DNA from: a virus
Reading direction: 5' to 3' (one strand)
DNA: 63,304 nucleotides
UHGV virus genome: UHGV-1374956
The translations under genes were made by a program, and so were the position numbers. Shown in pieces: positions 2,897-43,850 of the stretch (positions are counted from its first letter, which is position 1; each line of letters opens with the position of its first letter). The notes under the pieces are model-generated. The model saw only the letters and a program-made list of their open reading frames with translations. It did no database searches and was not told the origin of the DNA.

Positions 2897-3391
2897 TTAT
2901 TCATTTTTGTCTGCATTATTCTTTCTTAATACTCTTAAAACAGTAAGGCCCATTTCTTTAAATGTTGCACAATTAGTATATTCATCATCTATAACTAATT
3001 CTATATCATATTGTTCTTGTAAATTTTCTAATTCTGTCTTTTTAAAAATATGTGAAGGAACACCTTCTTTATCTACAGGTCTAACAATCATTTGAGACAA
3101 ATACGATAAAGATAAATGCAAATATTCATCACATAATTTATGAAGAGTAGATTTTGCAATTATATCCCGTCTAGCTGTCAATATAATAATAGAATAACCT
3201 GCTTTACCATATAAATTTAATAGATTAAATATTTGTTCTATTTTATCAACATATTGTGGATTATTAGCATTTTCATGGAAAAAATTCCACATTTCTTGAC
3301 CTTTTAAACCACGTTTATGAATTTCTAAATAAAGTTTAGACACATCCAATAAACATCCATCTATGTCACACACTATGGCCTTAGGCTTCAT
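2897..3391 (-). CDS. HAD-superfamily phosphatase (nucleotidase/Pnkp-phosphatase-like)
   Basis: N-terminal CDIDGCLLDV (DxDG motif I of HAD hydrolases); 164 aa. Confidence 0.55.
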   Translation of the reverse strand: MKPKAIVCDIDGCLLDVSKLYLEIHKRGLKGQEMWNFFHENANNPQYVDKIEQIFNLLNLYGKAGYSIIILTARRDIIAKSTLHKLCDEYLHLSLSYLSQMIVRPVDKEGVPSHIFKKTELENLQEQYDIELVIDDEYTNCATFKEMGLTVLRVLRKNNADKNE

Positions 3392-8898: not shown

Positions 8899-9480
8899 TT
8901 ACTTGCCATTTTCAATCTCCTTTATATACATAGTTTTAAAATAATCTAATTTCATTATTTTATCCTTTTCCTCTTCATAACTATAAAATTCTATAGGAAA
9001 TTTCCTTTTTCTATCATTTATACCTGTCCACTTAATACGTACATTTTCTAAAGTTTTATGCTTAAAGTTACAACCAATATCTTCATAGTTTAAACCCCAT
9101 TCTTGACATTTTTTACGGTCTTTCTTTTCTTTCTGTTTTGCCCGCTGTTGTTTTCTTTGTGCTGTTTCTTCATCATCTAATAATTGTCTTACAATTACAC
9201 CAAATTGTCCTTTAACCCAATTATAGTAATAACACCAACCGTCCTTTTCATAATCACCAAAATGAACAGAGTCTCTTACTACTTTATACTTATATGGACA
9301 ATCAAATAACCAACTTTTAACAATAGTAATCCATTCATTAGTAACTCTTTTACTTTCAGAATATCTATATTTTCTAATTAAATTATGCCAGAAAGAATTA
9401 TCCTTGTCTATATACCTATAATATTTAATTTTAAGCACTTCTCTTTCTTCTACAGTTAGCTTACAATCATCTATAGCCAT
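8899..9480 (-). CDS. hypothetical protein
   Basis: 193-aa ORF with a basic KQKEKKDRKK patch. Confidence 0.4.
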   Translation of the reverse strand: MAIDDCKLTVEEREVLKIKYYRYIDKDNSFWHNLIRKYRYSESKRVTNEWITIVKSWLFDCPYKYKVVRDSVHFGDYEKDGWCYYYNWVKGQFGVIVRQLLDDEETAQRKQQRAKQKEKKDRKKCQEWGLNYEDIGCNFKHKTLENVRIKWTGINDRKRKFPIEFYSYEEEKDKIMKLDYFKTMYIKEIENGK

Positions 9481-10841
9481 TATTTTGCTCCTTCCCTACA
9501 CCAATCTAATACCTGTGATGGTGTAAATTCTTCTTTGGTTTCATTATGCCTAAAACATAAAAACACTGGGAATCTTAAACTAGGATTACCATCTGCATCT
9601 GTTGTTTCTTCAAAATATTGTACTTTAACACTAAAATCTTGAATAAATTTTTCATTTAAAAATATTTTAGAATTAGCCCAAATTATTTCTCTGTCTTCAT
9701 CTTTAAAACCTGAACCAACACCCACAATATTGCCTTTAAATTTTATATTTAAAGCACCTAATCTATCTTTATTTTTTCCGGTTCCTTCACTTATACTATG
9801 TATTTTAAATTCTCCATCTTGCATATCCTTTATTTTAAGAAGACTTTTTGTACGCTTAAATTGATAACAAGCATCACCATCTCTGTACATTAAACCTTCC
9901 CACTTTTTATTTGCTTTTTCATATTGAAATATATAAGGGTCATGTTCTTGTCTTGCTATTAAAACATTAGGTATATCTGTTTCCAGTACAGAATATCCAA
10001 ATCTACTTGAACTTTGAGCTCCTAATAATTCACAAAGTGCTTTATATGCTGATTCAAAAGGTATATGCTGTTCCTTCTGTTTAAATTTATCTATACGAAC
10101 CATATCAAAAATAACATAATATAAATTATTACATTCTAAAGTTCTATTATCACTTGCTGTGAGTGAAATACCTTTTTGAAAATCTTCATTACCCTGCCCA
10201 TCAAAATATAATATTTCTCCATCAAATACTAAATCTCTAACATAATGAGGTAATGCGTCTAAAATATGCTGAATAGGTGCTTGTTTACAAGGCTTATTAG
10301 AACGAGAATATGCTACACCTTCCATTATATACATTCTTTTACCATCAAATTTACGACTATATAAACCATTAGCAAATACCTCACCTTTATAATTTTCTGC
10401 TAATTGAACCTCTGGTTTATTACAAAAATCAGGCCAAATTGTTTGTAGCTTTTTAATACCTAAATTAAGTCTTAAATCTTTAGCGACAACCATGCTCATC
10501 AACCCTTGAGCGTCCAAACTACTGTAACCAGTTATAAAATATTTAAGTCGTCTTACATCGTTTAAATCAGCCGCTCTCTTTTCGGATAATTCATCCAAAA
10601 TTTCTGTAAATTTATGCCAGTCCTCTACTGTAAAATTAGGATTTAATTTACGTTTGATTAAACCTTTCTTAATTGTAACTAATGCCAGTTTGCATTCATC
10701 AATTTTATACATCTTATCTGGATTATATGTATAATCTAAAACTTCTTTTAATAATTCATTTTTATTAGCATTTAAATATTCTAATTGAGCATTTCCAGAA
10801 TATTGCCTCAACCCTTCTACTGTTTTTATAATGTCTTGCAT
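9480..10841 (-). CDS. lig: ATP-dependent DNA ligase
   Basis: KxDG adenylation motif (RKFDGKRM); a 453-aa size typical of phage ligases. Confidence 0.7.
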   Translation of the reverse strand: MQDIIKTVEGLRQYSGNAQLEYLNANKNELLKEVLDYTYNPDKMYKIDECKLALVTIKKGLIKRKLNPNFTVEDWHKFTEILDELSEKRAADLNDVRRLKYFITGYSSLDAQGLMSMVVAKDLRLNLGIKKLQTIWPDFCNKPEVQLAENYKGEVFANGLYSRKFDGKRMYIMEGVAYSRSNKPCKQAPIQHILDALPHYVRDLVFDGEILYFDGQGNEDFQKGISLTASDNRTLECNNLYYVIFDMVRIDKFKQKEQHIPFESAYKALCELLGAQSSSRFGYSVLETDIPNVLIARQEHDPYIFQYEKANKKWEGLMYRDGDACYQFKRTKSLLKIKDMQDGEFKIHSISEGTGKNKDRLGALNIKFKGNIVGVGSGFKDEDREIIWANSKIFLNEKFIQDFSVKVQYFEETTDADGNPSLRFPVFLCFRHNETKEEFTPSQVLDWCREGAK

Positions 10842-22493: not shown

Positions 22494-23093
22494 TTATCTC
22501 TCCTTTACTATACTATTTAATACTTCATCTTTTAATGGAGTATCGTATCTAAATCTACCTCTTAAACAGTTTGTTCTAGTTATTGAACGACGACTTTTTA
22601 TACCTCTTGCAGTCATACAAGAGTGAATTCCATCTATAACAACCATTATATCTTCCATACCTAATAATTCTAAGATTTCGCAAATATCCATTCCAATTCT
22701 TTCCTGAACTTGAAGTCTTTTACATACTAAATCAACAATTCTAGCAAATTTAGATAATCCTAGCACTTTTCCACCCTTTGGAATATAGGCAATATGCACA
22801 TTGAGCCTCATCAAAGCACAATGATGTTCACAATGTGAATAAGCTTCAATGTTATTTACCATTACAAGGTCATCTCCGCCTATTTCAAACTGTTTATTAA
22901 ATTTCTCAGCTATATCTTCATTTGAATATTTACAACCCTCAAACAATTCTTTAAAATAACCTACCATTCTTTCAGGTGTTTCTTGCAACCCTTCTCTATT
23001 AGGGTCTTTGTCTATTTCTACTAATAGCTTTTCAAATATTTTAAGCATATTTTGTTCATTTAACATTATACACCTCTTTCTTCTGGATTCCAT
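22494..23093 (-). CDS. folE: GTP cyclohydrolase I
   Basis: CEHH and QVQERI motifs; GLSKFARIVD. Confidence 0.85.
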   Translation of the reverse strand: MESRRKRCIMLNEQNMLKIFEKLLVEIDKDPNREGLQETPERMVGYFKELFEGCKYSNEDIAEKFNKQFEIGGDDLVMVNNIEAYSHCEHHCALMRLNVHIAYIPKGGKVLGLSKFARIVDLVCKRLQVQERIGMDICEILELLGMEDIMVVIDGIHSCMTARGIKSRRSITRTNCLRGRFRYDTPLKDEVLNSIVKER

Positions 23094-23737
23094 ACAATTT
23101 TATGTAATTGTACTTGAAATCTAATATCAAATTTTGGGTATTTAAGTTTAAGTAATTTTACCTCTGTTACTAGATGTTCTAAACTTATCTTTCCAAAACA
23201 AGGGCTGACAAAAATAGTTCCTTTAAAAGATGTATGATGTATTAAAAATTGGCTAATAACACTAATATCATTATCGTCAGACACTACAAATTTTAATACA
23301 TCGTTTTCGTCCATTGTTTGAAAATTTGATTCGCACATTTCATGTTCCATTCCAGAACTTGGACATTTATAATCTACAGTAAAGAACCCTCTGCCCGCTC
23401 TTACTGCAAATACAAACGGCATAATATCTATACTTCCATTAGTTTCAATGTTTATATAATGCCCTGTTTTATTTAATTTATCAATAAGTTCTTTAACACA
23501 ATCTGTATGAAGTAAAGGTTCTCCGCCAGTAATTGTTACGGCTTGAAACCTTACTTTATCCACAATATCATCTATAGACATTAACTGTCCATCTGTTACT
23601 TTTTGAGCATAAGTGGTATCGCAATAAGAACATCTTAAATTACAACCAGCCAATCTAATAAATGTAACTGGCATACCTGTTCTTATTCCTTCACCTTCTA
23701 TGCTATGAAATATTTCTACTACATTTAAACTTGTCAT
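23066..23737 (-). CDS. queE: 7-carboxy-7-deazaguanine synthase (radical SAM)
   Basis: CNLRCSYCDT (CxxxCxxC). Confidence 0.8.
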   Translation of the reverse strand: MTSLNVVEIFHSIEGEGIRTGMPVTFIRLAGCNLRCSYCDTTYAQKVTDGQLMSIDDIVDKVRFQAVTITGGEPLLHTDCVKELIDKLNKTGHYINIETNGSIDIMPFVFAVRAGRGFFTVDYKCPSSGMEHEMCESNFQTMDENDVLKFVVSDDNDISVISQFLIHHTSFKGTIFVSPCFGKISLEHLVTEVKLLKLKYPKFDIRFQVQLHKIVWNPEERGV

Positions 23738-24102
23738 TAGTATCTACTCCATTCTGCAATATTACCTTCACTTTCTTGTACAGTAACACAAGAACACCAA
23801 GTAGTTTCTTTTCCTGTGTCCTTACAATACTCATCAATTTTTTCAGCTATCCAACAAGCTATATTTTCAGCTGTTGGATTAAAATCAAAGATTTCATTTA
23901 AGTTTTTATGGTCTAAAATATCATGTATAGTCCTTTTAATGTGAGTAAAATCTACAAGCATACCATTATTATCTAATTTTTGACCTTGTACTTCTACTAC
24001 AATAATCCAATTATGCCCATGAAGATTTTCACATTTGCTTTGATAGTCCAATTTTAATTGATGACTTCCAGCAATTTCCATTCTTTTACGAACTTTATAC
24101 AT
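23737..24102 (-). CDS. queD: 6-carboxy-5,6,7,8-tetrahydropterin synthase
   Basis: CENLHGHNW (CxxxHGH); 121 aa. Confidence 0.8.
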
Positions 24103-24760
24103 TACTACCTTCTTTCTCTTCCATATATTCTTTATAACCCCTTTCTCTTAATTTGCATGAAGGGCATTCGTGACATCCACCTTCTACTCCATTATAACAA
24201 GTATGAGTATTATTATAAATATAATCCAAATAACCTAATTCATCTGCCAACTGCCAGGTTTGTTTTTTGTTTAAATACATTAACGGTGTAATTATATTAA
24301 ATTGGTAATCCATAGCCAATGATAATGTTTGTTGTAAAGAATCAATAAACACCCTACGACAATCCGGATATCCACTAAAATCAGTTTCACAACAACCTGT
24401 AATAATATCGTGAGCTCCAATTGATTTGGCATAAATGGCCGCAATAGATAAAAATACATGATTTCTACCATCTACAAAAGTATTAGGATATTTTTCACCT
24501 TGCTTAATATCTAATTCTGTATTAACTAAAGAACAATTGGTTAAGCCTTCAAATATACTTGTTACATTTATTAAATTATAACTTACCCCTAAATCATTTG
24601 CTATCTTTTTAGCCTTTTCTAATTCGTTCCAATGCTTTTGTCCATAAAAGAAAGAAATTGTAAATACGTTCTCTTTTCCGTATGTTTTAATAGCTTGCAC
24701 CAAACAAGTGGTACTGTCTTGTCCTCCACTAAATACCACAACTGCTTTTGATTCACTCAT
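24095..24760 (-). CDS. queC: 7-cyano-7-deazaguanine (preQ0) synthase
   Basis: [15 protein letters not shown]-loop and C-terminal CxxC. Confidence 0.85.
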
Positions 24761-24794
24761 CTTCTATCTCCTTTCAACCCAAACTAGGTTATTT

Positions 24795-24812
24795 AATTAT
24801 TGTATTACAAAA
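24795..24812 (-). promoter_or_regulatory. conserved promoter motif (copy 6, upstream of the que operon)
   Basis: TTTTGTAATACAATAATT. Confidence 0.45.
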
Positions 24813-24881
24813 GTGGTTTAAAAGTAAAGCCTAAGGTTACCGATTCTTAACAAACAATCAGTAACCCTGGCATATATGGAA

Positions 24882-26459
24882 TTAAGAATTAAATCCTGTT
24901 TCTAATTCTTTTAATTGTCTTTGTAATTCTAATTCATGGTATTGTTCTTCACCATTGCTGTATGTTGCGAATGGATGTATAGCAATTCCACCACGTGGAG
25001 TAAATAAACCTTTTACTTCTAAATATTTAGGTTCTAATAATTTAACTAAATCTTTCATAATAATATTTACACAATCTTCATGAAAATCACCATGATTTCT
25101 AAAACTAAATAAATAAAGTTTAAGAGATTTACTTTCCACCATTTTTCTATTTGGAATGTATTTAATATGAATATCTGCAAAATCTGGTTGACCTGTTTTT
25201 GGACAAAGACTTGTAAATTCATAAGCATTAAATTTAACTACATAATCATTATCCGGATGTTTATTTTCAAACCATTCTAAAACAGATGGGTCATAATCAT
25301 ATTTATAATTAGTATTTTTAGAGCCTAAACCTTTAACAGTACCAAATTCTTCGCCCTCTCTACCTGCTGTACTTTCAATTTCTTCAATAGGTTGTGTATC
25401 TGCATTTGCCATCTCAAATATATCTTGTACTGCAACTCTAGTCTCTTGAGCTTTTGCTTCCATTTGTTTTAAATGCTCTTCTCTTTGCTGTTCCATAATC
25501 TCCGCCTTTCTAATAAGTTCTTTTTGTTGTTCTATTGTTTTAGGTTTTAACTTAAACAATGTTTTCTTTTTAATTTCTGTGCCTTTGTATTGGTAATTTT
25601 TAGCCCAATCCATTAAATAAGCTATATTAAATTTACATCTTTCTTGGTAACTTTCTTTAAGTTCTTCAAAATTAAACTTATACTTTTTGCATAATGATTT
25701 AATTTGCTGAATTTCAGCTTCCGGTTGGTGTATAATATGTTGAGGATTATCCAACTGTTTTGAGCTCATTACGACTGTTCCATAAGGTGTCATAATTCCA
25801 CCATTAGCACCTGTCATAATCCAACTTGTAGAATCTGCACTGGTAAACGGATATCTTTCTAATACTGGTAAAGACGTCATACCAAAAGCGTGTGTTTTTA
25901 CATTTGGATTAGAGCTTTGTCCTATAATTCTAAATACTTGCTCAAACCATTCATTTTTCTCTTTAGTAGACCTATCGTTGGCGGGTGATACTCCTATATA
26001 AGGAATATGTTTACCTTCAAAAGTTGTTTCCAACATTCTAACTAACCAGTCAAAGTCTTCATTTTGGTGAAATACTGGCAATATTTTATCCGCACTTTTT
26101 ACACGTTCACGCATATACAAATAATTTTCCCAACCAATTAAGGGAGCTTCTAGACATTGTTTACGTGTTTTAGCTTTTCTAAATTCACCAGGAATTTTAT
26201 CCAATTCGGCCGCTATATAAACATAATCATCTATACTATTTAAGAATTCAATATATTTATCTATATCTACTTCTTTGCCTACTGTATGAGCTGAAAATGC
26301 ACCTGAATCAATAAATAATTTACCCTTACCGTTATTTGCTATCCACGCATCTATAACATTTCTATCATTTATCCAGCTAGCAAGTCTATTGGCTCTTTTA
26401 GCTAATAAATATTCTCTCCAAGCTGGGTTATCACTGCCCGCAAAATATAAATCAAACAT
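24882..26459 (-). CDS. DpdA-like DNA-guanine transglycosylase fused to NADPH-dependent preQ0 reductase QueF
   Basis: N-terminal ~330 aa carry the TGT-like DSGAFS motif. C-terminal ~150 aa carry QueF motifs [14 protein letters not shown] and ESKSLKLYL. Confidence 0.7.
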
Positions 26460-40185: not shown

Positions 40186-41439
40186 TTAAATGGAAAATCT
40201 TCTAAGTTTATTTGTTGTAACTGTTTTTTCAACTACTTTACTTCTTGTAAATGTAATATGTAATTGTGTATCTTTTTCATTATCTGCAAATATAAATTGA
40301 AGTTTATTTGAATTTTCATTATTTATTTTGCAAGGTTTCCAAGAAGTAACTATTATAGGTTTATCTATTAAAGTTAAAATTGAAATTTTAGTGCCTGTCA
40401 TTGGAAATTCAGGTTTTGGACCTACATTTTTGAATTCTTTGATTGACATATCTTTTATTAAATTATCCAAGTCCAAGCTCCTTATTAAGTTATAAGTATA
40501 ACAATGTTTCGCATAACCTCTGTATGAATTTAATGTACATAATTGTTGTAGAAATGGTCTTTTATCTCTATTTTTAATTATGTCTAATACAGCTCTTTTA
40601 AATTTCTTAGCAGTTCTTTTTCTTAGAATAGTATAACCTCTGAAATGCCTGTAACCTAAGAAATCTATGCCTTGTTTAGTATGGAATACTTCGCTATAAC
40701 TCATCGATTGTTTTAATTCTACATCTATAAATTCGTGAATTAACTTTTGAATTACAAAAAGTTGTTCCTTACTATTAGATAGTATAACACAATCATCGCA
40801 ATATCTACAATAGTCTTTTACTTTTATTTTATGTTTCAATAGTTTATCTAGCTTATTTAGATATATGTTACCGAACAGTTGGCTGGTAAGATTACCAATT
40901 GGACAGTTTTTGCCTCCAGGGAATGAAAATATAATGTCCTTAATAATTTTTAACAATTTGACATCTTTTATCTTCTTGCATACTTCATCATATAAAATTT
41001 GCTGGTCAACAGTAGGATAAAACTTCTTTATATCTGTTTTTAGACAGTAGTCATTTTTCATAATTAGTTTTCTAAGTCTATAACTACCTGCTAATGGTCC
41101 TCTATCTTTTATACACCCATAAGAATGTTGAATAAAACCTTTAACAAATATTTCTTCTATAATATTATTTATTGCATGGTGTACAATTCTATCTTTAAGT
41201 GGTAGAATATAAATAAGTCTATGTTTACCATTTTCGAATATTTGTTTAGTGGAATATTTAGAGGTAGTAAATTTTCCTGCTATAACTTCCTGACGTATCT
41301 TTTCTAAATTTTCTTCTAAATTCTTTTCAAATTCTTGAACATCTTTTCTATCTCTTCTACCAAGTGCTGTTTTATACCAAGCAAGCCTAAAATTTTCTTT
41401 AGATATAAATTTATTCCATAAGTTTCCTACTCTCTTCAT
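40186..41439 (-). CDS. diversity-generating retroelement reverse transcriptase
   Basis: RT motifs, including the YCDDCV catalytic YxDD box. The DGR-specific IGNLTSQLFGNIYL (I/LGxxxSQ) signature is present. Adjacent TR/VR pair. Confidence 0.85.
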   Translation of the reverse strand: MKRVGNLWNKFISKENFRLAWYKTALGRRDRKDVQEFEKNLEENLEKIRQEVIAGKFTTSKYSTKQIFENGKHRLIYILPLKDRIVHHAINNIIEEIFVKGFIQHSYGCIKDRGPLAGSYRLRKLIMKNDYCLKTDIKKFYPTVDQQILYDEVCKKIKDVKLLKIIKDIIFSFPGGKNCPIGNLTSQLFGNIYLNKLDKLLKHKIKVKDYCRYCDDCVILSNSKEQLFVIQKLIHEFIDVELKQSMSYSEVFHTKQGIDFLGYRHFRGYTILRKRTAKKFKRAVLDIIKNRDKRPFLQQLCTLNSYRGYAKHCYTYNLIRSLDLDNLIKDMSIKEFKNVGPKPEFPMTGTKISILTLIDKPIIVTSWKPCKINNENSNKLQFIFADNEKDTQLHITFTRSKVVEKTVTTNKLRRFSI

Positions 41440-41578
41440 TTACCTCCTTAAAATAAAGGGCCCGAATTTTCGCATATTGCTACCAAAACTGACCCTTTTT
41501 CGTATTGTTTTTCCGCTATTTCTAACGAGAGGATTTAGGCCCCAGCTTGCACGACAAAGTTACCTTTTTGTACAATAA

Positions 41579-41688
41579 CACGCCCCGGCAACCATTATTC
41601 ACATTCGCATTCGTCAACGAATTATTCGAATTAGTAGCCCACGAACCGCAGTGCGTCGATTCATTGTAATTGCCACCAAGTCTCACCA
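41579..41688 (-). repeat. DGR template repeat (TR)
   Basis: 110 bp, 95/110 identical to the VR. On the coding (minus) strand it carries nine AAT codons. Confidence 0.85.
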
Positions 41689-41810
41689 GGAAGGGCCTTA
41701 ACCCTTATTAAGTTTTTAATGTTCTACGTCTTTAGTGCTTTGGATTTTGCATTAAGATTTTAGGAATACGGCCCACCTTCACTTCGTTCAGGAGGGCGTG
41801 TCCGTTCTGG

Positions 41811-43850
41811 TTATGCGTGTACACGTTCAACGTGCAAGCTCACGCCCCGGCAACCACTACCCACATACGTACCCGTCAACGAATCAGCCGAAGTAGTAGC
41901 CCACGAACCGCAGTGCGTCGAGTCATTGTAAGGGCCACCAAGTCCCACCACATAAGGTGTACCAAAATGGTCTCCTCGACGAGTATCTGCCCAAGCAGAC
42001 CAATCATGAGAACCGGTAGCGGCAATATCTCTAGAAACTTGCCATAAATAACCACAACAACATTCTACAAAGTATCCGGAAATCATACGTTTACCAGCAG
42101 TATCTAAATAACCTCCACATTTTTTATCAGAAGGAATTGCACTACCTTGAATATTTGTTTTTTGGTTAGAACCTTTAGAGAATATTCTAAATTCATCTGC
42201 ACTTGCTAACTGTTTACCTACTTGGTCCATATCTCCAAAGAATAACATATATTGTCTATTATTTGTAATTGTACCAGCGTAAGAACTTGCTGTAGAAGTA
42301 CCTGTACCACTTTGTAGGTAAATATCAACCCATTTCCTAATATTTCCTCTGTCTACAAATACTTGTCCTTTATTTCCTGTTAAGGCGGCAGAACGAAACG
42401 CTGGAGTCCAAGATGAATTAGGTATAAAGTAGCCTGCATTATAACCTATAGCCGGATGGTTAGCCCAAAAACTATCACTTAAAAGGGTTGGAGCATTACC
42501 TTCTGTTACTGCTTGACATAATGTGTGAGCTCCACCTATTTGAACTGCATTTGTAGTCCCTACTGGTAGATTTTCATTTAAACTTGCAATAAGTTGACCT
42601 TGATTATCTAAATAGAAATAATAATCTTTACCATTTTCTATTGAACCCGTATCTAAAATTTCTGAAATAGGTTTAAGAAAATCATTTTCAGTGTAGAAAG
42701 TGTCTCCATTTGCTTTTCTTATTGCGGTACCTGCTTTAATAGTTACATATTGTTTATCCGCAAAAATAAAGTTTGGTTGTTTATATTCAAATTCTCTATT
42801 CGCATACCAAATAATATTTGCTTTTTTTGGTAATTCTGCAAGACATTGGGTGGTATTAGCTAAAGAACTTTCATCTGCTCCTGTTGCTAATTGTACCATT
42901 GGTCTTAATTTGATTGAATTTGGTTGAACTGGTGCGTTATCTTGGTAGGTAGGAGAAGAAAGAGAAGCGTTGAAGCCTAAAGAAGTATTACCGGAAACCT
43001 GAGTAAAACTACCAACAACAGAACCAATACCACTATTGTAAAAAGCACCATTAAATAAACTACCATTATATTGGTTTCCTGTATTACCTTTAATATTCGG
43101 CAAACTTTCTGAAACATATTGACCGATTTTACTAACTTCATCTGCTTGTATATAAATTTCTTTAAGTTTAGGAACTTTAAATTTTTGATTTACAGTATCA
43201 AGCCCCCAGTATGTACATACACCAGTTTCTTCAATATTAGTTTCAAAAGTTTCATAATCCACCCAAGGTAGTGAATTAGCAACTAATAAATCATAAGGAT
43301 TAGTGTCACCTGTAAAATCAGCTTTGTTAAATTCTTGACCGTTACAATCATAAGCACCATTTAAAGAACTATCTTTACGATAAGTCCAAAAAACGTCACC
43401 TATATTTCTACCTACTGCCCCTTTATTTTCTAACATATAGAAACAATCTTGTGATAAATCATATCTTAATGTTACAAGCCAACCTTCAGGAATAGAGCCT
43501 GCTGTTAGTGCTAAATTTTTAAGAGTTTTAATTTGTTTAGCTCCTAAATTGTTTACATTTACATAGCAATTACCTGTATTAGCGGTTGATGATTTAAAAA
43601 CAACCTCCATACCATTAAAATAGCTTGTAGGTGCTATGTTTTGTGAATCATCTGCGTATGTAACGGGTTCTAATACATAAGTATTTGAACTAAAACTTGT
43701 ATTCTCATAAAAAGAACCATTACTTGCATAAACTGGAAGCATATTTGTGAGATTGTTGATACCCTCCCCTATGGTATTCATGTGGATAGGCATGACAGTT
43801 TCATTTTGATTCCAAGTTGTTTTTTGGTCTGCTGTCAAATTGTTTGGCAT
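41811..43850 (-). CDS. tail fibre / receptor-binding protein, DGR target (C-terminal variable region)
   Basis: 679 aa, last gene of the tail module. The VR encodes the C-terminal ~37 codons (GLGGPYNDSTHCGSWATTSADSLTGTYVGSGCRGV). Confidence 0.75.
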   Translation of the reverse strand: MPNNLTADQKTTWNQNETVMPIHMNTIGEGINNLTNMLPVYASNGSFYENTSFSSNTYVLEPVTYADDSQNIAPTSYFNGMEVVFKSSTANTGNCYVNVNNLGAKQIKTLKNLALTAGSIPEGWLVTLRYDLSQDCFYMLENKGAVGRNIGDVFWTYRKDSSLNGAYDCNGQEFNKADFTGDTNPYDLLVANSLPWVDYETFETNIEETGVCTYWGLDTVNQKFKVPKLKEIYIQADEVSKIGQYVSESLPNIKGNTGNQYNGSLFNGAFYNSGIGSVVGSFTQVSGNTSLGFNASLSSPTYQDNAPVQPNSIKLRPMVQLATGADESSLANTTQCLAELPKKANIIWYANREFEYKQPNFIFADKQYVTIKAGTAIRKANGDTFYTENDFLKPISEILDTGSIENGKDYYFYLDNQGQLIASLNENLPVGTTNAVQIGGAHTLCQAVTEGNAPTLLSDSFWANHPAIGYNAGYFIPNSSWTPAFRSAALTGNKGQVFVDRGNIRKWVDIYLQSGTGTSTASSYAGTITNNRQYMLFFGDMDQVGKQLASADEFRIFSKGSNQKTNIQGSAIPSDKKCGGYLDTAGKRMISGYFVECCCGYLWQVSRDIAATGSHDWSAWADTRRGDHFGTPYVVGLGGPYNDSTHCGSWATTSADSLTGTYVGSGCRGVSLHVERVHA
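41841..41950 (-). repeat. DGR variable repeat (VR) at the 3' end of the tail-fibre gene
   Basis: 14 of 15 TR/VR mismatches fall at TR adenines (minus strand). GC-rich IMH-like GGTTGCCGGGGCGTG is shared at the 3' end. Confidence 0.85.

Follow-up and report, generated by a model that had tools for sequence, protein, structure and literature searches.

Modification of DNA with 7-deazaguanines is an active topic in phage counter-defence. The subject of this study is a gene cassette in the virus genome UHGV-1374956, a DNA of 63,304 nucleotides that was analysed over its whole length (hereafter, the window). Five tightly packed open reading frames (ORFs) on the minus strand fill positions 22494-26459 of the window (Table 1). 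Four of them encode FolE, QueE, QueD, and QueC, and the fifth encodes a 525-aa protein in which a domain assigned to the DNA transglycosylase DpdA is joined to a domain assigned to the nitrile reductase QueF. FolE, QueD, QueE, and QueC make 7-cyano-7-deazaguanine (preQ0) from GTP. A first-pass annotation, made by a model from the letters of the DNA, had read six activities into this minus-strand cassette, and all five ORFs lie where it had placed them. Every motif it quoted is present, including DSGAFS (aa 51-56) and the QueF motif (aa 417-428). Family matches bear out the complete pathway it proposed to 7-aminomethyl-7-deazaguanine (preQ1), through FolE, QueD, QueE, and QueC together with QueF, and domain searches (TIGR03139, PHROG 887, and fold comparison) agree that a domain related to DpdA and tRNA-guanine transglycosylase (TGT) shares one polypeptide with QueF.

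The C-terminal part of the fusion protein (aa 367-525) is predicted to be a unimodular QueF, which reduces preQ0 to preQ1 with NADPH. It scores 168.8 bits against TIGR03139, whose equivalog cutoff is 86.9, and is 66% identical to Bacillus subtilis QueF (4f8b; E = 1.4e-59) in an alignment that spans residues 3-154 of the 165-residue chain. The archaeosine-forming paralogue QueF-L (5jyx) is matched at E = 0.09 only. Two signature stretches, CPKTGQPDF and ESKSLKLY, are spelled with the same letters as in B. subtilis QueF. The first holds Cys419, the predicted thioimide-forming nucleophile, which we take to be the counterpart of Cys55/56 of the B. subtilis enzyme. The second is the predicted NADPH-binding motif, which in QueF reads E(S/L)K(S/A)hK(L/Y)(Y/F/W) and is missing from QueF-L (PMC10516641). 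By its sequence, this domain is unambiguously assigned as a reductase and not as the amidinotransferase QueF-L.

The N-terminal part (aa 1-302) has no match in Pfam or NCBIfam, and sequence and profile searches of the PDB found QueF only, never a TGT or DpdA. It matches PHROG 887, the phage 'queuine tRNA-ribosyltransferase'/DpdA family, at 5e-61, and is 32% identical to CAjan DpdA over 246 aa (BLASTP, E = 9e-35) and 52.5-53% identical to gp7 of phage Dp-1. Deletion of CAjan DpdA abolishes 2'-deoxy-preQ0 (dPreQ0) in that phage (PMC6884629). An AlphaFold2 model built from 60 homologues is confident over residues 1-345, with per-residue confidence (pLDDT) mostly >90. In Foldseek comparisons, the modelled (beta/alpha)8 barrel falls nearest to DpdA/TGT structures in the PDB, the best structural match being the DNA enzyme DpdA, and the top matches among viral models (BFVD) are annotated phage DpdAs, including DpdA2 of Vibrio phage nt-1. 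Five residues (Asp51, Asp87, His131, His190, and Asp209) are invariant across 60 close homologues and 11 very diverse phage DpdAs.

The active site of Salmonella DpdA is composed of Asp/Asp/His/Asp, with catalytic roles assigned there (PMC10164549). The window residues were mapped onto D95/D130/H181/D256 of that enzyme by alignment, motif, and spacing rather than by superposition. The D-S-G-A-F motif of Asp51 would be equivalent to D102-SGG-F/Y in TGT and, in Salmonella DpdA, to Asp95 and Phe99. Asp51 is the proposed general acid/base and Asp209 the proposed nucleophile; a DpdA active site further includes an Asp that binds the base and a conserved His. The spacing between these two residues is 158 in the window protein versus 161 between Asp95 and Asp256. 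Canonical TGT features were not found in the domain, which has neither a PF01702 or NCBIfam TGT match nor a CxCxxC...H zinc site nor a conserved Cys; Dp-1 DpdA likewise is without the TGT zinc site and TGT profile features. Judged by sequence and modelled fold together, aa 1-302 is a DpdA and not a canonical TGT. Because no Pfam or NCBIfam model detects the phage DpdA domain, DpdA-QueF fusions are invisible to routine annotation. The public JGI/IMG automatic annotation calls the 525-aa protein (P0121) only '7-cyano-7-deazaguanine reductase'.

Standalone DpdA homologues all stop at ...LF, which is residue 302 in the fusion. The linker that follows (aa 303-366) contains a conserved E/K/R/Q-rich helix (aa 309-339, pLDDT 84-93) and then an acidic tract of variable length and sequence. 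Three in-frame internal ATG codons (M322, M333, and M350) are without a well-spaced Shine-Dalgarno sequence, the nearest candidate, GGCGGAG, being only 3 nt ahead of M322, and separate translation of QueF from internal starts appears unlikely. The linkers of four related fusions (P0001, P0003, P0016, and P0020) carry an insertion of ~20 aa, CEECQGG..GDCxPC, aligned at window aa ~355-365. This CxxC...CxxC pattern, a possible zinc knuckle, does not occur in the window protein.

The 525-aa ORF is free of internal stops, and the identical protein is found on 9 contigs, which come from at least four independent ENA assemblies. In a search of 5.8 billion clusters, 24 of the best 120 proved to be full-length fusions (134 member sequences), 468-548 aa in length, 49-90% identical, and located mostly on 50-65 kb contigs. 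Their reading frame is intact across linkers that range from ~6 residues (P0024) to ~90. The 9 contigs with the identical protein and the 24 in-frame clusters show that the domain junction is free of the frameshift or missed stop codon against which the first-pass annotation had cautioned. Its description of the fusion as unusual stands for cultured phages; in metagenomes, the fusion recurs (the same 24 clusters). Among 50,697 genomes of isolated phages, none of the 250 matching records holds both halves in one piece; several have dpdA and queF adjacent or nearby. The best 150 of 8,140 matches in a representative library of 1.84 billion proteins included no further DpdA-QueF lineages. Long matches in that library were rejected as new fusions, since they comprised QueF proteins with inteins, one fusion of QueC to QueF, and DpdAs that carry insertions. 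In two QueF homologues (P0193 and P0243), the intein interrupts the chain at the catalytic cysteine or directly beside it (FTSKC/VVGDTLID...VHN/CPKTGQPDF), and the QueC-QueF fusion is P0195 (393 aa). Full-text literature searches returned no mention of a DpdA-QueF fusion, and the sole fusion treated in the main papers of the field is Gat-QueC. The DpdA-QueF fusion is conserved in a small phage clade, recurs in metagenomes, and has apparently not been described before. Its novelty is confined to the fused architecture; earlier publications cover the modification and the pathway as well as the closest phage, and no new modification, pathway, or principle is revealed.

When DpdA domains are arranged in a neighbour-joining tree, fusions with long linkers form a monophyletic group, and their sister group includes the short-linker P0024 and two unfused DpdAs. 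One of these unfused relatives, from the metagenomic sister lineage (L006, P0025), keeps the two genes apart in the order PolA-DpdA-QueF-QueC, the same as in the window, and its DpdA and QueF are 65% and 67% identical to the window domains. In contrast to the window, a stop codon, a 12-bp spacer with a Shine-Dalgarno sequence (AAAGGAGCATAG, from the DpdA stop to the QueF start), and a separate ATG lie between its genes, and there is no linker. This arrangement looks like the precursor state or else a product of reversion or fission. We infer that dpdA and queF were once neighbouring genes, that they became fused when the stop codon and the 12-bp spacer between them were lost, and that the fusion has been maintained by selection.

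In TGT and DpdA, a Gly-rich loop after the sixth barrel strand touches the 7-substituent of the base (PMC10164549). This loop was compared in 11 aligned DpdAs from phages of known gene content, and its sequence follows the presence of QueF. SP(A/R)ND occurs in all seven DpdAs from QueF-encoding phages, namely the window, Dp-1, Bacillus phage Flasso, Cellulophaga phiSM, Dinoroseobacter R5C, Pseudanabaena Pan1, and Arthrobacter Mufasa8, whose hosts belong to five phyla and whose DpdAs are 24-54% identical to the window domain. The same seven share a ~14-residue insertion after LD(K/V)IPG (window aa 88-104). The DpdAs of the four QueF-lacking phages, CAjan, Rosebush (where DpdA is gp2), MiCath, and the Gat-QueC phage VspDsh_1, have GG(M/L)VG and no insertion (4/4); dPreQ0 has been measured in CAjan and Rosebush. 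Asp162, the last residue of the window loop, is invariant in the 60-sequence family, and an acidic side chain near the protonated aminomethyl group of preQ1 would be chemically sensible. The loop type is a candidate determinant of preQ1/preQ0 specificity, and it favours an order of reactions in which reduction comes first and preQ1 is then inserted. For Dp-1, it was left open in 2019 whether QueF acts on free preQ0 or on DNA-bound dPreQ0 (PMC6884629). In 2023, phage QueFs were reported to retain all reductase motifs, with two of them complementing E. coli delta-queF, and DpdA2 of Vibrio phage VH7D was found to insert preQ1 into DNA ~5-fold better than preQ0 (PMC10516641). Whether QueF-encoding phages insert preQ1 directly is a question that the 2019 work did not settle and the 2023 work answered in part, and the fusion together with the loop dichotomy offers a cheap, concrete handle on it and on the residues that switch between preQ0 and preQ1. 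A DpdA with an SPAND-type loop (P0032) is also encoded on contig SRR10769897_7923 (L007), with no biosynthesis genes beside it; it is followed by a queuosine-precursor transporter of the Vut_1/YhhQ type and a short-chain dehydrogenase, an arrangement that suggests salvage of host preQ0 or preQ1.

The closest isolated relative, by its DpdA domain, is Streptococcus phage Dp-1, whose cluster gp1-gp7 encodes QueF, QueC, QueD, QueE, FolE, QueT, and DpdA (PMC6884629). The two phages share the same six activities, a DpdA that is 53% and a QueF that is 65% identical, and the SPAND loop. The flanks also agree, with DnaN, RecB/Cas4, and RecU downstream and, once the linear Dp-1 map is circularly permuted, PolA upstream. 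However, DpdA and QueF of Dp-1 are separate and lie at opposite ends of a cassette with a QueT transporter, whereas those of the window are fused via the ~64-aa linker and no QueT is present. Identity between the backbones is only 26-45%, a tail sheath of the myovirus type is encoded in the window, and GC content is 40% in Dp-1 versus ~30% in the window. Other known systems share parts of this design. As in the window, phiSM and VH7D combine a complete preQ1 pathway with a DNA transglycosylase, and phiSM DpdA has the SPAND loop; in these systems, experiments established that QueF truly reduces preQ0 and that DpdA accepts preQ1 (PMC10516641). All of their genes are separate, and DpdM (YkgJ/DUF3109) methylates the product to mdPreQ1, whereas the window is without DpdM. 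Gat-QueC of Enterobacteria phage 9g and its relatives likewise fuses an enzyme that diversifies preQ0 to a core pathway enzyme. There, in contrast, the fused activity is amidation to the archaeosine base (dG+), the transglycosylase is outside the fusion, and the QueC of the window is a plain 221-aa protein. Salmonella DpdA (PDB 7ui4; PMC10164549), which belongs to the bacterial Dpd restriction-modification system and is only 15% identical, depends on the DpdB ATPase to insert preQ0, and its beta6 loop is Gly-rich, whereas the window DpdA has no DpdB partner, an SPAND loop, and QueF attached.

Dp-1 DNA contains 2'-deoxy-preQ1 (dPreQ1) at 3389 per 10^6 nt, which is ~1.7% of G, and no dG+ (PMC6884629). 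By this published precedent, dPreQ1 is the likely end product in the window phage, because no DpdM, DpdN, Gat-QueC, or ArcS was found. DpdM is a YkgJ/DUF3109 protein with a CxxCxxCC motif (PMC10516641); tblastn with a DpdM-like domain gave no match, and the motif occurs in none of the six reading frames of the window. In Pfam searches that covered 38 non-structural ORFs, neither ArcS nor any formyl-, methyl-, or acyltransferase was detected; DpdN is a formyltransferase. Family searches detected a QueC domain alone in QueC, with no glutamine amidotransferase (Gat) domain. The absence of Gat-QueC and ArcS noted in the first-pass annotation therefore stands, given the 221-aa QueC and the scanned ORFs, and its prediction of dPreQ1 has become stronger than first stated because the relative Dp-1 has measured dPreQ1. 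A metagenomic protein of the same DpdA clade (P0081, 577 aa) has a DpdM/YkgJ-like Cys-cluster domain fused N-terminally to DpdA (CEMCGRCC; PF03692 at 4e-4; 23% identity to phiSM DpdM, E = 1e-5; PHROG 21666 matched by both), which suggests a machine for mdPreQ1.

Taken as a whole, the locus probably encodes a Dp-1-type DNA-hypermodification module whose fusion protein makes preQ1 and inserts it, giving dPreQ1 at a fraction of G. FolE, QueD, QueE, and QueC would first convert GTP to free preQ0. The C-terminal QueF domain would then reduce free preQ0 to preQ1 with NADPH, as deduced from its 66% identity to B. subtilis QueF and its fully intact catalytic motifs. Finally, the DpdA domain would exchange G for preQ1 in already replicated duplex phage DNA, a step deduced from homology and the Dp-1 precedent; the chemistry would be a double displacement of the TGT type, in which Asp51 would serve as acid/base and Asp209 would be the nucleophile. 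The outcome would be dPreQ1 at some G positions, shielding the DNA from host nucleases, and, by analogy with other phages, it may protect against host restriction, as the first-pass annotation presumed.

The benefit of the fusion would most plausibly lie in strict 1:1 co-production and proximity, with preQ1 made beside its transglycosylase, which would avoid insertion of preQ0 or loss of preQ1 to the tRNA-queuosine pathway of the host. Substrate channelling, which the first-pass annotation proposed, is plausible. To be active, unimodular QueF must assemble into an oligomer, a homodecameric T-fold with active sites buried at subunit interfaces. Because of this requirement, the fusion protein would be expected to assemble as a QueF core bearing several clustered DpdA domains on helical linkers of ~60 residues. 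Either of two bolder versions, a penta- or decameric QueF core whose DpdA arms on rigid linkers insert preQ1 processively and replace G far above 1.7%, or reduction of DNA-bound dPreQ0 by QueF, is rather unlikely. The first, if true, would go beyond handy co-expression and be a new kind of machine for DNA hypermodification. On-DNA reduction, if true, would make QueF the first nitrile reductase acting on nucleic acid. More generally, the fusion is Rosetta-stone evidence that reductase and transglycosylase act together, a single polypeptide that makes preQ1 and inserts it is a compact tool candidate, and the primary amine of dPreQ1 is a useful chemical handle on DNA.

Several considerations weigh against this interpretation. 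Separate genes suffice for most relatives (of the 120 best clusters, 96 are unfused), and the fusion could therefore be a selectively near-neutral means of co-expression. The correlation of SPxND and GGxVG loops with QueF comprises 11 sequences only and is confounded by phylogeny. In the AlphaFold2 monomer model, the QueF part has pLDDT <50, leaving the oligomer geometry and the accessibility of its N-terminus unsupported. dPreQ1 in virion DNA is a prediction for an uncultivated phage, and a protective effect at the low level of Dp-1 (1.7% of G) is an assumption. Finally, ~20 non-structural ORFs are without family assignment, which leaves room for an unrecognised enzyme that modifies dPreQ1.

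The alternative order of reactions, in which the DpdA domain places preQ0 and the tethered QueF reduces the nitrile of dPreQ0 in situ, is unlikely. The fusion would then bring the reductase to a fresh modification site, much as archaeal QueF-L acts on tRNA-bound preQ0. To our knowledge, all DpdAs characterised before 2023 insert preQ0, and tethering a DNA-binding enzyme to a downstream modifier, here through a linker with a conserved helix, would suit a reaction on the polymer. The Dp-1 study, moreover, did not settle the order (PMC6884629). Yet the QueF domain closely resembles the free-base B. subtilis enzyme and matches QueF-L at E = 0.09, its active site would be buried at subunit interfaces where entry of duplex DNA is unlikely, and the substrate loops of QueF-associated DpdAs differ systematically from those of preQ0 insertases. 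Moreover, E. coli TGT can use the free preQ1 that phage QueFs make, and preQ1 is a direct substrate of VH7D DpdA2 (PMC10516641).

Quite unlikely, too, is a scheme in which dPreQ1 is a mere intermediate to which an unrecognised phage enzyme adds a methyl, formyl, acyl, or aminoacyl group. Dp-1 stops at dPreQ1 (PMC6884629), whereas phiSM and immuto_2-6A modify it further via DpdM and DpdN (PMC10516641). Many window ORFs lack a family, but none of the unassigned ORFs lies in the cassette, and the searches above found neither DpdM, by tblastn or motif, nor a formyl- or methyltransferase in the 38 ORFs. The most divergent fusion-bearing relative (L002, encoding the short-linker P0024) does have an extra LPG_synthase_C-like gene in its cassette; no homologue of this gene was found in the window. 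On this 112-kb contig (ERZ4201038 NODE_124), a 310-aa gene lies at 9417-10349 between dpdA-queF and queC, and its product matches PF09924 LPG_synthase_C (aminoacyl/acyl-transferase, GNAT-like) at 2.9e-12 and no PHROG family. It is a candidate for acylation of the amine of preQ1 or dPreQ1.

A module that inserts a queuosine precursor into host or phage tRNA for a translational benefit is very improbable. Names in PHROG and GenBank do say tRNA-ribosyltransferase, and the fold is common to TGT, but the DNA enzyme is the best structural match and the Pfam TGT family, zinc site, and conserved Cys are absent. The gene lies between those for DNA polymerase and the sliding clamp, and its counterparts in Dp-1 and CAjan modify DNA (PMC6884629). 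QueA, QueG, and QueH were not found in the window, whose only tRNA, tRNA-Trp (CCA), is not a Q-tRNA. The chance that a frameshift, assembly error, or missed stop has joined two genes is negligible: close relatives do have the two genes just 12 bp apart, but 9 contigs from at least four independent ENA assemblies encode the same product, 24 clusters of 49-90% identity stay in frame through linkers of 6 to ~90 residues, and ~64 linker residues, including the conserved helix, are missing from unfused genes and therefore cannot stem from a simple 1-nt slip.

Table 1. Features of the cassette and of the fusion protein, with positions in the window.
Feature	Position	Strand	Remarks
dpdA-queF fusion gene, 525 aa	24882..26459	-	uninterrupted ORF
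DpdA domain, aa 1-302	25554..26459	-	TGT-like TIM barrel of the 9g/CAjan/Dp-1 (DpdA1) type
Asp51 in DSGAFS (aa 51-56)	26307..26309	-	proposed general acid/base; Asp95 counterpart in Salmonella DpdA
S158-P-A-N-D162, loop after strand beta6	25974..25988	-	candidate preQ1-specificity signature; strand E154-158 in AlphaFold2 model
Asp209 in S-A-D-S-T	25833..25835	-	proposed nucleophile; Asp256 counterpart in Salmonella DpdA
Inter-domain linker, aa 303-366	25362..25553	-	from standalone DpdA ends, alignment, and AlphaFold2 model
QueF domain, unimodular, aa 367-525 plus stop	24882..25361	-	predicted NADPH-dependent preQ0-to-preQ1 nitrile reductase
E442-S-K-S-L-K-L-Y449	25113..25136	-	predicted NADPH-binding motif; ESKSLKLYL at aa 442-450
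Cys419 in CPKTGQPDF	25203..25205	-	predicted thioimide-forming nucleophile; within aa 417-428 motif
121-bp gap, fusion gene to queC	24761..24881	-	sole sizeable cassette gap; hairpin, promoter-like sequence, Shine-Dalgarno
queC, preQ0 synthase, 221 aa	24095..24760	-	PF06508 4e-73; TIGR00364 248.3 bits, cutoff 150.3; SGGQDS
queD, 6-carboxytetrahydropterin synthase, 121 aa	23737..24102	-	PF01242 6e-29; TIGR03367 93.9, cutoff 89.25; CENLHGH
queE, 7-carboxy-7-deazaguanine synthase, 223 aa	23066..23737	-	radical SAM, Clostridial type; TIGR03963, PF04055
folE, GTP cyclohydrolase I	22494..23093	-	PF01227 7e-56; NF006826 191.2 bits, cutoff 162
tRNA-Trp (CCA), single phage tRNA	4495-4565	-	not among the queuosine-modified GUN tRNAs

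The preQ0 pathway enzymes FolE, QueD, and QueC exceed their curated cutoffs and carry the signature motifs. QueE stays under its equivalog cutoff (224.6 bits against 260.1 for TIGR03963, E = 1.2e-66), this being its best match and full length; it also matches PF04055 at 8e-13, and its CxxxCxxC cluster reads CNLRCSYC. The longest folE ORF (199 aa) overlaps queE by 28 nt and is without a Shine-Dalgarno sequence. The true start is likely the ATG at 23066, nine codons later, giving 190 rather than 199 aa, because it is preceded at 5 nt by an AGAGGTG Shine-Dalgarno and shares a TAATG with the stop codon of queE. The fusion gene begins at an ATG with a GGAGAGG Shine-Dalgarno 7 nt upstream, and its first 8 nt are shared with the end of the gene for PolA, a family-A DNA polymerase. 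Downstream of it, the gap before queC contains a hairpin with an 11-bp stem (GGTTACTGATT...AATCGGTAACC), a promoter-like TTTACT-18-TACAAT upstream of queC, and the Shine-Dalgarno sequence of queC (GAAAGGAG). The hairpin and the promoter-like sequence could be an internal terminator/promoter pair. Rfam searches of the gap found no preQ1 riboswitch, either with the gathering threshold or when matches with E as high as 10 were allowed.

The genes of the cassette follow one another without an unassigned ORF in between and are embedded among replication genes, in the order PolA / DpdA-QueF / QueC / QueD / QueE / FolE / DnaN / Cas4-like / RecU, and every gene of the window is on one strand. The window encodes a large terminase, portal, major head protein, tail sheath, and tape measure protein, which identify it as a tailed phage. 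Its replisome comprises PolA, sliding clamp, clamp loader, DnaB, primase, single-stranded DNA-binding protein, RecA, ligase, a Cas4-like nuclease, and RecU. The nearest matches of PolA are in Clostridium phages (40%) and Dp-1 (38%). The cassette DNA has no megablast match in the 50,697 phage records, and relatives are found only at the protein level.

Outside the cassette, a diversity-generating retroelement lies at 40186-41950 on the minus strand, with a reverse transcriptase gene at 40186-41439, a template repeat at 41570-41688, and a variable repeat at 41832-41950. The 417-aa reverse transcriptase matches RVT_1 at 1e-16 and PHROG 1423 at 2e-103. The template repeat is 119 nt long, and the variable repeat lies at the 3' end of a tail protein gene (41811-43850); 15 of the 19 mismatches between the two repeats fall at template adenines.

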